From assembly GCF_054482595.1 (NCBI RefSeq), contig NZ_CM137008.1: DNA of 64,000 nt. One strand, given 5' to 3'. This document shows positions 2,979 to 30,969 of this stretch, in pieces. The stretch's first letter is position 1, and every line of letters begins with the position of its first letter. The position numbers were made by a program, and so were the translations under genes. The notes below the pieces were generated by a model, which was given only the letters and a program-made list of their open reading frames with translations, did not search any database and had not been told where the DNA came from.

Positions 2979-4136
2979 ATGGAGCGCAACGTCACGCTCG
3001 ATTTTGTTCGCGGCGTCGCCATTCTGGGGATCCTGCTATTAAACATCAGCGCCTTTGGGCTACCAAAGGCGGCTTATCTCAATCCCGCCTGGTACGGTGC
3101 TATTACGCCGCAGGATGCATGGACCTGGGCATTTCTCGATCTCATCGGCCAGGTGAAATTCCTCACGCTTTTTGCGCTGCTGTTTGGTGCTGGCCTGCAA
3201 ATGTTGCTGCCCCGTGGCAGACGCTGGATCCAGTCGCGGTTAACGCTGTTAGTCTTGTTGGGCTTTATTCACGGTTTATTGTTCTGGGACGGCGATATTC
3301 TGCTGGCTTACGGGCTGGTGGGCTTAATCTGCTGGCGGCTGGTGCGCGATGCGCCATCGGTAAAAAGCCTGTTTAATACAGGCGTCATGCTTTATCTGGT
3401 GGGGCTTGGCGTTTTGCTGTTATTGGGGTTGATTTCCGACAGCCAGACCAGCCGCGCCTGGACGCCGGATGCATCGGCTATTTTGTATGAAAAATACTGG
3501 AAGCTTCACGGCGGCGTTGAAGCGATCAGTAATCGTGCCGATGGTGTTGGCAACAGTTTACTGGCACTGGGCGCACAGTATGGCTGGCAACTGGCAGGGA
3601 TGATGCTCATTGGTGCGGCGCTGATGCGCAGCGGCTGGCTGAAAGGGCAATTCAGCTTACGTCACTATCGTCGTACTGGTTTTGTGCTGGTGGCGATTGG
3701 GGTGACCATTAACCTTCCTGCCATCGCCCTGCAATGGCAGCTGGACTGGGCGTATCGCTGGTGTGCCTTCTTACTTCAAATGCCGCGGGAACTGAGTGCG
3801 CCGTTTCAGGCGATTGGCTATGCGTCGCTGTTTTATGGCTTCTGGCCGCAATTGAGCCGCTTTAAGCTGGTGCTTGCGATCGCCTGCGTCGGACGGATGG
3901 CGCTGACCAACTATCTATTGCAAACGCTGATTTGTACCACGCTTTTTTACCACCTCGGTTTGTTTATGCAGTTTGACCGTCTGGGATTGCTGGCGTTTGT
4001 TATTCCGGTATGGCTGGCGAATATCCTCTTCTCTGTTATCTGGCTGCGTTACTTCCGCCAGGGGCCGGTGGAATGGCTCTGGCGTCAGTTAACTTTGCGT
4101 GCTGCCGGACCGGCAATATCTAAAACATCAAGATAA
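2979..4136 (+). CDS. yeiB: DUF418-family inner-membrane protein
   Basis: 385-aa polytopic membrane ORF 17 nt downstream of folE; recognised as YeiB. Confidence 0.85.
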   Translation: MERNVTLDFVRGVAILGILLLNISAFGLPKAAYLNPAWYGAITPQDAWTWAFLDLIGQVKFLTLFALLFGAGLQMLLPRGRRWIQSRLTLLVLLGFIHGLLFWDGDILLAYGLVGLICWRLVRDAPSVKSLFNTGVMLYLVGLGVLLLLGLISDSQTSRAWTPDASAILYEKYWKLHGGVEAISNRADGVGNSLLALGAQYGWQLAGMMLIGAALMRSGWLKGQFSLRHYRRTGFVLVAIGVTINLPAIALQWQLDWAYRWCAFLLQMPRELSAPFQAIGYASLFYGFWPQLSRFKLVLAIACVGRMALTNYLLQTLICTTLFYHLGLFMQFDRLGLLAFVIPVWLANILFSVIWLRYFRQGPVEWLWRQLTLRAAGPAISKTSR

Positions 4137-4165
4137 CGATCTGGATCACATTCGTTAACAAAACG

Positions 4166-4183
4166 GCTGTAACCGTTTCCATT
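4166..4183 (+). promoter_or_regulatory. Candidate GalR/GalS operator upstream of galS (gctgtaaccgtttccat)
   Basis: Resembles gal operator half-sites (GTGTAAnCG…); galS is recalled to be autoregulated. Match is partial. Confidence 0.4.
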
Positions 4184-4185
4184 GC

Positions 4186-4201
4186 TGTGACTCGATTCAC
4201 G
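4186..4201 (+). promoter_or_regulatory. CRP-binding site candidate (TGTGA-ctcgat-TCACg) in galS promoter
   Basis: 9/10 match to TGTGA-N6-TCACA consensus read directly; about 80 nt upstream of galS ATG. Confidence 0.5.
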
Positions 4202-4277
4202 AAGTCCTGTATTCAGTGCTGACAAAATAGCCGCCAGCAAGCAGTCATTTACTGCAATCTCATAACAGGTAGTGAAT

Positions 4278-5318
4278 ATGATCACCATTCGTGATGTAGC
4301 GCGTCAGGCTGGCGTCTCTGTGGCAACGGTTTCCCGGGTGCTCAATAACAGCACGCTGGTCAGTGCCGACACGCGTGAAGCAGTAATGAAAGCCGTGAGT
4401 GAGCTGGATTATCGGCCAAACGCCAATGCCCAGGCGCTGGCAACTCAGGTTAGCGACACCATTGGCGTGGTGGTGATGGACGTTTCTGATGCGTTTTTCG
4501 GCGCGCTGGTAAAAGCGGTGGATCTGGTCGCCCAGCAGCATCAGAAATACGTGCTAATCGGCAATAGCTATCATGAAGCGGAAAAAGAACGTCACGCCAT
4601 TGAGGTGTTAATTCGCCAGCGTTGTAATGCATTGATTGTTCACTCAAAAGCATTGAGTGACGATGAACTGGCGCAATTTATGGATAACATTCCCGGTATG
4701 GTGTTAATCAACCGCGTTGTGCCGGGGTACGCCCATCGTTGCGTTTGCCTGGATAATCTCAGCGGTGCCCGAATGGCGACGCGCATGTTGCTGAATAACG
4801 GTCATCAACGTATTGGTTATCTTTCTTCCAGCCACGGCATTGAAGATGACGCCATGCGTAAAGCAGGCTGGATGAGTGCGTTGAAAGAGCAGGATATTAT
4901 TCCGCCGGAAAGCTGGATTGGCACTGGTACGCCGGACATGCCGGGCGGTGAGGCGGCGATGGTTGAACTGCTGGGGCGCAATCTACAACTTACCGCTGTA
5001 TTTGCTTATAACGACAATATGGCTGCTGGCGCACTGACAGCATTAAAAGATAATGGTATTGCGATTCCGTTACATCTCTCAATCATCGGTTTCGATGATA
5101 TTCCCATCGCCCGTTACACCGACCCGCAATTAACGACCGTGCGTTATCCCATTGCTTCAATGGCTAAATTAGCCACCGAACTGGCCTTGCAGGGGGCAGC
5201 AGGCAATATTGATCCTCGTGCCAGCCACTGTTTTATGCCGACGTTAGTGCGTCGTCATTCTGTCGCAACGCGCCAGAATGCGGCGGCGATCACTAACTCA
5301 ACAAATCAGGCGATGTAA
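4278..5318 (+). CDS. galS: Galactose isorepressor GalS (LacI/GalR family)
   Basis: Track ORF starts at GTG 4272; ATG at 4278 gives the 346-aa [14 protein letters not shown]… HTH protein recognised as GalS. Confidence 0.9.
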
Positions 5319-5330
5319 CCGCTTTCAATC

Positions 5331-5346
5331 TGTGAGTGATTTCACA
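5331..5346 (+). promoter_or_regulatory. Perfect CRP consensus site (TGTGA-gtgatt-TCACA) in galS-mglB intergenic region
   Basis: Exact consensus palindrome read directly; mgl is a known CRP-activated operon, but the site lies ~250 nt upstream of mglB ATG so promoter assignment is uncertain. Confidence 0.45.
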
Positions 5347-5597
5347 GTATCTTAACAATGTGATAGCTATGATTGCACCGTTTTAACGTTGTAACCCGTA
5401 TGTAACAGTGAATAATCACTTTCACCGAGGTAATAGCGTCATAACAACAATTAAAGCCGTTTTCTGGAGCGTTACCGGGCATGGAAGAACGAATTTTAAA
5501 AAGTGAGCTTCGGCGTTCAGTAACACTTCATTAACTCTACTGCCCCGCCGAGCATTTATCTCAAGCACTACCCTGCATAAGAAAAACCGGAGATACC

Positions 5598-6596
5598 ATG
5601 AATAAGAAGGTGTTAACCCTGTCTGCTGTGATGGCCAGCATGTTATTCGGTGCCGCTGCACACGCTGCTGATACTCGCATTGGTGTAACAATCTATAAGT
5701 ACGACGATAACTTTATGTCTGTGGTGCGCAAGGCTATTGAGCAGGATGCGAAAGCCGCGCCAGATGTTCAGCTGCTGATGAATGATTCTCAGAATGACCA
5801 GTCCAAGCAGAACGATCAGATCGACGTATTGCTGGCGAAAGGGGTGAAGGCACTGGCAATCAACCTGGTTGACCCGGCAGCTGCGGGTACGGTGATTGAG
5901 AAAGCGCGTGGGCAAAACGTGCCGGTGGTTTTCTTTAACAAAGAACCGTCTCGTAAGGCGCTGGATAGCTACGACAAAGCCTACTACGTTGGCACTGACT
6001 CCAAAGAGTCCGGCATTATTCAGGGCGATTTGATTGCTAAACACTGGGCGGCGAATCAGGGTTGGGATCTGAACAAAGACGGTCAGATTCAGTTCGTACT
6101 GCTGAAAGGTGAACCGGGCCATCCGGATGCAGAAGCACGTACCACTTACGTGATTAAAGAATTGAACGATAAAGGCATCAAAACTGAACAGTTACAGTTA
6201 GATACCGCAATGTGGGACACCGCTCAGGCGAAAGATAAGATGGACGCCTGGCTGTCTGGCCCGAACGCCAACAAAATCGAAGTGGTTATCGCCAACAACG
6301 ATGCGATGGCAATGGGCGCGGTAGAAGCACTGAAAGCACACAACAAGTCCAGCATTCCGGTGTTTGGCGTCGATGCGCTGCCAGAAGCGCTGGCGCTGGT
6401 GAAATCCGGTGCACTGGCGGGCACCGTACTGAACGATGCTAACAACCAGGCGAAAGCGACCTTTGATCTGGCGAAAAACCTGGCCGATGGCAAAGGTGCG
6501 GCTGATGGCACCAACTGGAAAATCGACAACAAAGTGGTCCGCGTACCTTATGTTGGCGTAGATAAAGACAACCTGGCTGAATTCAGCAAGAAATAA
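5598..6596 (+). CDS. mglB: Periplasmic D-galactose/D-glucose-binding protein
   Basis: 332-aa ORF with signal peptide (…[12 protein letters not shown]); recognised as MglB. Confidence 0.95.
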
Positions 6597-29358: not shown

Positions 29359-30090
29359 ATGAAGATGTTGCGCGATCCGCTGTTCTGGCTCATTGCTTTG
29401 TTTGTGGCACTGATTTTCTGGCTGCCTTACAGCCAGCCGCTGTTTGCTGCCTTGTTCCCACAACTGCCACGACCCGTTTATCAGCAAGAAAGTTTTGCAG
29501 CTCTGGCACTGGCTCATTTCTGGCTGGTGGGAATTTCGAGTTTGTTTGCGGTGATCATTGGTACTGGTGCCGGAATTGCTGTCACTCGCCCGTGGGGCGC
29601 GGAATTTCGCCCACTGGTGGAAACTATTGCCGCCGTTGGACAGACTTTTCCGCCCGTCGCGGTGCTGGCGATCGCCGTTCCGGTGATCGGGTTTGGTCTG
29701 CAACCAGCGATTATCGCCTTGATCCTTTACGGTGTGCTGCCCGTCCTGCAGGCGACACTTGCCGGGCTGGGAGCGATTGATGCCAGCGTGACAGAAGTTG
29801 CGAAAGGTATGGGAATGAGTCGAGGTCAGCGACTGCGTAAGGTCGAGCTACCGCTGGCGGCTCCGGTGATTCTGGCGGGCGTGCGAACTTCGGTGATTAT
29901 CAACATTGGTACGGCGACGATCGCCTCAACGGTAGGGGCCAACACGCTGGGTACGCCCATCATCATCGGGCTTAGCGGATTTAATACCGCGTATGTGATC
30001 CAGGGGGCGTTACTGGTGGCACTGGCGGCGATCATCGCAGACCGCCTGTTTGAAAGGCTGGTGCAGGCGCTTAGCCAGCACGCAAAATAA
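29359..30090 (+). CDS. yehW: ABC transporter permease (osmoprotectant uptake)
   Basis: 243-aa hydrophobic ORF immediately after yehX. Confidence 0.9.
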
Positions 30091-30178
30091 AGGTATAACC
30101 TGCGAGCATGACGCCACCAATTCCGCCTAACGCCATAAACAGGAACAGGGCGATGACCCCAATTTTAGCTATGCGCAT
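30071..30178 (-). CDS. yohO: 35-aa small membrane protein YohO ([35 protein letters not shown])
   Basis: Not in ORF track; found on reverse strand; its last 20 nt overlap the 3' end of convergent yehW; sequence recognised as YohO. Confidence 0.75.
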
Positions 30179-30237
30179 AATGCACTCCTTATGTTAACGA
30201 AAGGATTGTACAGTAAAGCGCATTTGTTAACGAATCA

Positions 30238-30969
30238 TTAAATGCCGAGTGGGAAAATATCATAGCCTTGTTCTTGCCAACTGGTGAGTTGCTGCTGTTG
30301 GGCGGAGGTTCGATTTTCACCGCACCACACCAGCAATGTACGGCCTTCGAACAGTTCAGGGCGTAGTTGATTGAGCGAGTGGGCGAGGACATCAATGCGC
30401 CATCCTTGTTGACTGGCAATCCAGCCCTCCAGCCACAGACGGGTGGTATCCTGAATATTCCAGCCAACCACCAGCGCATCTTTACCCTGTTTTTTACGTG
30501 CCGAAGCCAGACAAATGGCGATGTAGTTGATCAGTACGCCGTCGAGGATCGCCAGCAGCGCCTGGAGAGTCGGTTGTTGGCACTGAAGCCGTCGGCGCAG
30601 AGGAATAAACAAATGCGTGGTGAGCGTCTGGGCGGGGTAATCCTGACCGCGCTCTTTGATCCACGTTCGCAGGCTATGCAGATTGCCGCTTTGCAAGTAA
30701 GTCAGTAATGTTTCTTGCTGATCGCGCCAGCCGTTCTGCACATCAACATTTTCATTACTGAGCAGCATTTTAACTTTGCTGACCTGCACGCCGTTGTCGA
30801 TCCAGCGTTTGATCTCGCGGATCCGGTCAATATCGGCATCGTTGAACAGCCGATGACCGCCGTCTGTCCGTTGCGGTTTCAGCAATCCGTAACGCCTCTG
30901 CCACGCGCGTAACGTGACAGGGTTAATATCACAAAGCAACGCCACTTCACCAATTGTGTAAAGCGCCAT
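30238..30969 (-). CDS. mlrA: MerR-family transcriptional regulator MlrA (activator of csgD / curli)
   Basis: 243-aa ORF with N-terminal MerR HTH (MALYTIGEVALLCDINPVTLRAWQRRYGLL). Confidence 0.9.
   Translation of the reverse strand: MALYTIGEVALLCDINPVTLRAWQRRYGLLKPQRTDGGHRLFNDADIDRIREIKRWIDNGVQVSKVKMLLSNENVDVQNGWRDQQETLLTYLQSGNLHSLRTWIKERGQDYPAQTLTTHLFIPLRRRLQCQQPTLQALLAILDGVLINYIAICLASARKKQGKDALVVGWNIQDTTRLWLEGWIASQQGWRIDVLAHSLNQLRPELFEGRTLLVWCGENRTSAQQQQLTSWQEQGYDIFPLGI

Follow-up and report, generated by a model that had tools for sequence, protein, structure and literature searches.

The stretch of DNA analysed here, hereafter the window, comprises 64,000 nucleotides of contig NZ_CM137008.1 (RefSeq assembly GCF_054482595.1), and all coordinates refer to it unless MG1655 or another locus is named. 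At the end of the operon encoding the OsmF-YehYXW glycine betaine ABC transporter, the last gene, yehW, runs towards a small gene of the opposite strand, yohO, which is itself preceded by mlrA. The features of this locus and the basis on which they were assigned are the following:

29359-30090, plus strand: yehW, which closes the operon and encodes the permease component of the glycine betaine ABC transporter OsmF-YehYXW (ORF, RefSeq); its stop codon, TAA, occupies 30088-30090.
29840-30021, minus strand: zone of read-through on the yohO strand, up to a published Rho-dependent region located about 180 nt beyond the yohO 3' end.
30022-30070, minus strand: 3' untranslated region of yohO, antisense to yehW codons, bounded by a Term-seq end and holding a hairpin, GGCGGTC/GATCGCC, at 30027-30046.
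30071-30090, unstranded: stretch shared by the convergent coding sequences of yohO and yehW, 20 nt with both stop codons included or 14 nt when sense codons alone are counted.
30071-30178, minus strand: yohO coding sequence, 35 codons and TAA (ORF listing, RefSeq 'protein YohO', NCBIfam NF010225, conservation).
30185-30190, minus strand: Shine-Dalgarno sequence AAGGAG, 6 nt 5' of the yohO ATG (read from sequence).
30205-30210, minus strand: predicted -10 element of the yohO promoter, TACAAT in E. coli and TATAAT in most genera (26-genus alignment).
30224-30244, unstranded: ArcA box, TTGTTAACGAATCATTAAATG (ttgttaacgaatcattaa), lying over the -35 region of the predicted yohO promoter and spanning the mlrA stop codon.
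30238-30969, minus strand: mlrA, the same-strand upstream neighbour of yohO, given for context (ORF and annotation).

The ORF listing and its translation place an ATG-started reading frame of 35 codons, closed by a TAA stop, at 30071-30178 (-), inside the 147-nt gap that separates yehW from the end of mlrA at 30238. By itself, such a frame is not beyond chance, since the listing holds 40 ORFs of at least 20 aa within 2.5 kb around yohO. It can nevertheless be considered non-random because it is preceded by a Shine-Dalgarno sequence, recurs at this position in 79 of 80 other species, shows a pN/pS of 0.26 and reaches a hydropathy of 2.41. The Shine-Dalgarno sequence itself is shared, as an (A/C)AGGAG motif lies at an equal distance from the yohO start in nearly all orthologous loci. 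With a 701-nt query and a threshold of at least 95% identity, the yohO region was matched in 5423 of the 5426 complete E. coli genomes, and the RefSeq features beneath the match are yehW, yohO and mlrA. Among the 5427 E. coli matches to window 29800-30500, two sit on plasmid-typed records.

A CDS named 'protein YohO' is annotated in the identical region of strain XH990 and in MG1655 (b4542; 2215657-2215764), where yehW occupies 2215745-2216476 on the opposite strand and overlaps yohO by the same 20 nt. The protein of the window is identical to RefSeq WP_001216963.1 and scores 80.1 bits, above the cut-off of 57, with the NCBIfam equivalog NF010225, 'protein YohO', residues 1-35 falling on profile positions 1-35. 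A public gene catalogue records PF27791 (UPF0387_membrane) on YohO orthologues; in the Pfam copy that we used, a profile search of YohO itself matched no model. Taken together, yohO is very probably a genuine and already curated gene encoding a YohO/UPF0387 family protein of 35 residues that spans the inner membrane once. A preliminary description of this DNA had given the name of the gene, its protein sequence and its position in the yehW-mlrA gap, in agreement with the ORF listing, RefSeq and MG1655, and had noted the 20-nt convergent overlap with yehW, which both the window coordinates and the MG1655 annotation confirm. It had also reported yohO as absent from the ORF track. The gene is indeed missing from the default listing of 60 aa and appears when the minimum is set at 20 aa, an absence best explained by the length threshold, but RefSeq does annotate it. 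The presentation of yohO as an unannotated feature was thus wrong because it belongs to a curated gene family.

In order to follow the gene across genera, 80 loci, one per species, were collected with YehW as an anchor from Escherichia, Citrobacter, Salmonella, Enterobacter, Klebsiella, Kosakonia, Cedecea, Buttiauxella, Pantoea and others. In 79 of these 80 other species, a YohO ORF was found at the 3' end of yehW, reading on the opposite strand. Pooled over 78 unique sequences, pN/pS amounts to 0.26 in the yohO frame and to 1.12, 2.52, 1.12, 0.46 and 2.37 in the other five frames, and the variable sites are distributed 20/11/28 by codon position. At the level of substitution patterns, this shows that yohO is under purifying selection across Enterobacteriaceae and in at least one Pantoea. 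A search among 1.84 billion cluster representatives returned 17 YohO relatives, all at least 60% identical, many of which are frameshift chimeras. Judged by homology, the family is confined to Enterobacteriaceae and their close neighbours.

Three of the collected loci deserve a separate mention. The only scanned species without yohO is Enterobacterales bacterium CwR94 (L080), where pta is convergent with yehW (3785-5929 of that locus), and it marks roughly where the distribution of the family ends. In Citrobacter amalonaticus AUH_CA_2023_1 (L007), the first 11 yohO codons are out of frame (around 3787-3820) and the N-terminus is disrupted, reflecting either an assembly error or a pseudogene. 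Finally, a 799-kb contig labelled Chryseobacterium sp. 18061 (L077, CACSKA010000001.1) carries an Enterobacteriaceae-type yehW-yohO-mlrA arrangement, with 74% identity for YehW and 76% for MlrA; this assembly is probably mislabelled or contaminated.

Published data show that yohO is translated. Ribo-seq covers the gene, cited there as a known membrane small protein, and the protein was detected by top-down mass spectrometry in a 2025 proteomics paper. Its membrane localisation is taken from the literature, the discovery papers (Hemm et al. 2008, 2010) being cited here second-hand. The Kyte-Doolittle profile of YohO displays a single hydrophobic transmembrane segment, with a 19-residue mean of up to 2.41. 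Over the 78 unique sequences, residues M15, A16, G19, G22, V23, M24, L25, G27 and Y28 are invariant and draw a face of small residues on the hydrophobic helix. We propose that YohO would act inside the membrane through this invariant face (M15 A16, G19, G22 V M L, G27 Y28), which, by analogy with other bacterial small membrane proteins, may pack against another transmembrane protein or mediate self-association. YohO is absent from every solved structure of the PDB.

The tail-to-tail overlap is as widespread as the gene. It is kept in all 79 other species bearing yohO, with a length of 26 nt in 42 of them, 20 nt in 34, 17 nt in two and 14 nt in one. The passage from 20 to 26 nt corresponds to a single 6-nt indel within the overlap, confined to one clade, by which YehW and YohO each gain two residues. 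The inserted nucleotides are CGCCGC or CACCGC and are found in loci L012, L016 and 40 others of the Enterobacter/Klebsiella/Kosakonia group (around 3713-3738 of these loci, equivalent to window 30071-30090). This insertion is in frame for both yehW and yohO and has been accepted by two genes at once. The last 10 residues or so of YehW, which follow a conserved FERL motif, are highly variable between genera, and where the two genes overlap yohO seems to be under the stronger constraint. The overlap may be viewed as an old architectural feature in which the coding sequence for YehW's variable cytoplasmic tail extends into the end of yohO. Such an arrangement would give the two mRNAs a complementarity of at least 69 nt and keep the genes physically linked, and it need not be regulatory.

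Across the loci, yohO follows yehW and not mlrA. The latter is missing within 3 kb or displaced in L040, L046, L060, L075, L081 and the Klebsiella loci. Two family members, the most divergent ones, have either metG with an ArsR-like regulator or a fepA-like receptor gene upstream of yohO, and both retain the full 20-nt overlap with the permease gene. Seen from gene order, the association of yohO with yehW could reflect a functional tie to the transporter or could equally be passive, since an overlap is hard to break by rearrangement.

The 3' end of the yohO mRNA has been mapped by Term-seq at MG1655 2215813 (+), where it is classified as 'primary yohO, antisense yehW' (PMC7815308, suppl. 1), with three entries in a curated table covering three growth conditions. 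MG1655 positions were converted to the window by means of the MG1655 annotation and exact sequence match, and this end corresponds to 30022, i.e. 49 nt past the yohO stop and within yehW. It falls 5 nt after the 3' hairpin, which consists of 7 bp (-12.5 kcal/mol) and carries no U tract. Farther along the same strand, a Rho termination region antisense to yehW was reported at MG1655 2215995 (+), with a score of 5.6 and a significance of 9e-16 (PMC7815308, suppl. 2). The positions of the Term-seq end and of the Rho region indicate that at least 69 nt of the yehW coding sequence lie under the yohO mRNA, and about 250 nt in the case of some transcripts. The overlap of the two mRNAs, implied by the preliminary description, is therefore borne out by the mapped 3' end as well as by the published excludome discussed below. 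Terminator prediction gave no intrinsic terminator between the genes on either strand, and its one match inside yohO is a weak, G-U-dependent hairpin.

We also looked for a structure in this mRNA. In E. coli, it is predicted to fold into a long stem that pairs the GGIGGV codons with the 3' untranslated region (-66 kcal/mol), with a z of -1.78 for a slightly longer segment of 211 nt. A conserved mRNA structure was rejected because 78 sequences gave a consensus fold with next to no pairing (-5.7). Of 72 unique sequences, 45 keep the local 3' hairpin with a folding energy of -8 kcal/mol or lower; as this hairpin is built from conserved YehW codons, it is not separable from protein constraint. An Rfam search at the locus returned no family, a chance IRES being the only match.

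The 130 nt located upstream of the yohO start codon were aligned over 26 genera. Three conserved elements emerge from the alignment, namely the -10, the block TTAATGnTTCATTAACA and a second TTAACA just before the Shine-Dalgarno sequence, and all three are present whether or not mlrA lies upstream. We propose that yohO would be transcribed from its own conserved promoter, whose predicted start near 30197 leaves a leader of about 20 nt. Among the -35-like hexamers, the best one, TTAACA, is only 14 nt away from the -10, a spacing atypical for sigma-70. This promoter is a prediction, since the published data that we searched contain no mapped yohO transcription start, including the SMRT-Cappable-seq files, from which yohO is absent. 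No terminator-like site was predicted in the 59-nt gap between mlrA and yohO, so that read-through from mlrA is also possible. The sequence TGTACAAT at the -10, which we take to resemble an MlrA half-site, had suggested an MlrA box; the idea was dropped because TGTACAAT is Escherichia-specific and other genera have CGTATAAT.

The conserved block TTAATGnTTCATTAACA coincides exactly with the predicted ArcA box, and the box of the window is identical to the one predicted beneath an ArcA ChIP peak from published work (PMC3798270). In that work, the peak was obtained in vivo and assigned to yohO (Tables S1, S3, S4, S8), and deletion of arcA raised yohO expression by no more than the step from 7.17 to 7.77 log2, under a condition where expression was low. 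Without oxygen, the RNA of yohO is down by 2.96 log2 (about 8-fold) in Shigella flexneri, with no effect of FNR. An ArcA box placed over the -35 region would lead to anaerobic repression of the yohO promoter, and the ChIP peak, the slight rise in the arcA mutant and the oxygen effect in Shigella together fit such an ArcA-mediated repression.

Two observations were made beside these elements. The motif TGTTAACG occurs twice on the plus strand, at 30192-30199 and 30225-30232, 33 bp apart and flanking the predicted -10; the distal copy is part of the published ArcA box, and the proximal copy, located at the predicted transcript start, is equally conserved across genera. In addition, a terminator-like hairpin with a GCGTTGCTTT tail is found 38 nt into mlrA (30931-30965, minus strand), at the same place as an 'internal' 3' end detected by Term-seq at MG1655 2214904, which is window 30931 (PMC7815308). 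It may cause premature termination or attenuation at the start of mlrA.

Several explanations of the locus go beyond a curated gene whose end happens to be shared with its neighbour. In the first one, an excludon or cis-antisense arrangement in line with the antisense interplay put forward in the preliminary description, convergent transcription of yohO (or mlrA-yohO) and of yehZYXW through their common 3' region would lower the expression of the other side, either by polymerase collision or by RNase III cleavage of the duplex, and would couple oxygen/ArcA status to osmoprotectant uptake. The yohO-yehW pair is found in the published E. coli excludome, among 165 convergent 'excludons' present in at least 50% of 58 MG1655 RNA-seq samples (ExcludonFinder 2025, PMC12288877). 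The transcripts do overlap, with the yohO 3' end 49 nt inside yehW and read-through to the Rho site about 230 nt in, the overlap is conserved in 79 species, and no intrinsic terminator is predicted between the genes on either strand. Moreover, just beyond the stop of yehW, the plus strand shows a moderate richness in C (C/G 1.37), which would fit Rho-dependent read-through across yohO. However, ExcludonFinder scores overlap only, and the conservation of the overlap is no proof of selection for regulation, because overlapping coding sequences guarantee overlapping transcripts whenever both genes are on. On the yehW strand, no 3' end is reported in the Term-seq data (PMC7815308) and none is predicted. 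The synonymous variability of yehW under the yohO 3' untranslated region equals that of the rest of the gene (1.35 vs 1.27-1.55 bits), indicating no extra synonymous constraint there, a weak test for cis-antisense pairs, and the fold of the whole mRNA is not conserved. Furthermore, mlrA and yehZYXW are both sigma-S dependent and would for that reason tend to be on together and not alternately. Antisense regulation of this kind appears unlikely.

Another explanation could be that YohO is a dedicated in-membrane partner of OsmF-YehYXW, either an accessory subunit or a regulator, and that this role is what keeps the gene at the end of the operon, a proposal drawn from linkage. Consistent with it, yohO is joined to the yehW 3' end in every genus where it was found while the upstream neighbour varies (mlrA, metG/ArsR-like, fepA-like and others), and the invariant face of YohO is glycine-zipper-like, as is typical of helix-helix packing. 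Precedents exist with KdpF for KdpABC, AcrZ for AcrB and MgtS for MgtA. However, since yohO lies on the opposite strand and its predicted regulator, ArcA, is a different one, the gene is not transcribed together with the yehW operon. The overlap also makes separation by rearrangement unlikely, in which case the linkage is maybe passive, and the closest solved homologue of YehW (OpuA, 7AHC) shows, by sequence, no such subunit. We regard a dedicated role in the transporter as improbable. We hold it similarly improbable that the conserved tail-to-tail overlap is functional in one of two ways, YohO being the in-membrane partner of OsmF-YehYXW or ArcA-controlled yohO transcription acting as an oxygen-dependent antisense brake on the transporter operon; in either case, respiratory state would be linked to osmoprotectant uptake.

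A toxic role was also considered, in which YohO would be a type I toxin-like hydrophobic peptide kept in check by an antisense RNA from the yehW strand. The protein is small and hydrophobic, a complementary transcript exists on the other strand, and a sigma-70-like match is present on the plus strand at 30153-30181. But this promoter-like match is at chance level (one found, 1.3 expected), is built on the complement of the start codon and has flanks that vary between species. Neither promoter prediction nor the Rfam search pointed to a dedicated antisense sRNA with its own promoter at yohO, and no Rfam antisense RNA is found at the locus. Normal cultures, moreover, readily yield YohO, and a screen returned a living ASKA clone of yohO under IPTG induction. 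Whereas type I loci are multi-copy and patchy, yohO belongs to the core genome as a single copy (5423 of 5426 genomes). Together, these points make a toxin very unlikely. As for a chance ORF that is not a gene, the local abundance of short ORFs (40 of at least 20 aa in 2.5 kb) speaks for it, but conservation, the codon-position pattern, the Shine-Dalgarno sequence, the NCBIfam model and published translation and mass spectrometry data refute it, and we give it practically no credit.

We thus favor the reading of yohO as a genuine gene for a small inner-membrane protein. As a discovery it matters little, because public annotation and papers already cover yohO, its overlap with yehW and the overlapping transcripts. 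What the present analysis adds is the breadth of the conserved overlap (about 80 species), its independence from mlrA and the promoter region with an ArcA box shared across genera. An overlap maintained whatever lies upstream, a conserved, predicted promoter region of its own with a published ArcA site and an invariant helix face are leads for a targeted experiment, and they do not change how the locus is understood.

The locus can be compared with four known systems. Like the excludons of the ExcludonFinder concept (PMC12288877), yohO and yehW form a convergent pair with overlapping transcripts, and the E. coli table of that paper names them. The likeness concerns transcript overlap alone, whereas excludons are defined by mutually exclusive expression through interference or RNase III. 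Small hydrophobic peptides such as Hok, Ldr, Ibs and TisB belong to type I toxin-antitoxin systems. YohO resembles them as a short hydrophobic peptide with a complementary RNA on the other strand, but yohO has no dedicated antisense sRNA and is expressed, tolerated, single-copy and core. Small membrane-protein partners are exemplified by KdpF with KdpABC, AcrZ with AcrB, MgtS with MgtA and CydX with cytochrome bd. YohO is alike in its size, its single helix, its face of small residues and the location of its gene beside a transporter operon, a likeness drawn from linkage and sequence, but yohO is convergent to the operon instead of being inside it and is apparently regulated differently. Finally, with the YohO/UPF0387 family (b4542; NF010225; PF27791), the match is full-length, the position between yehW and mlrA is the same and no difference was found.
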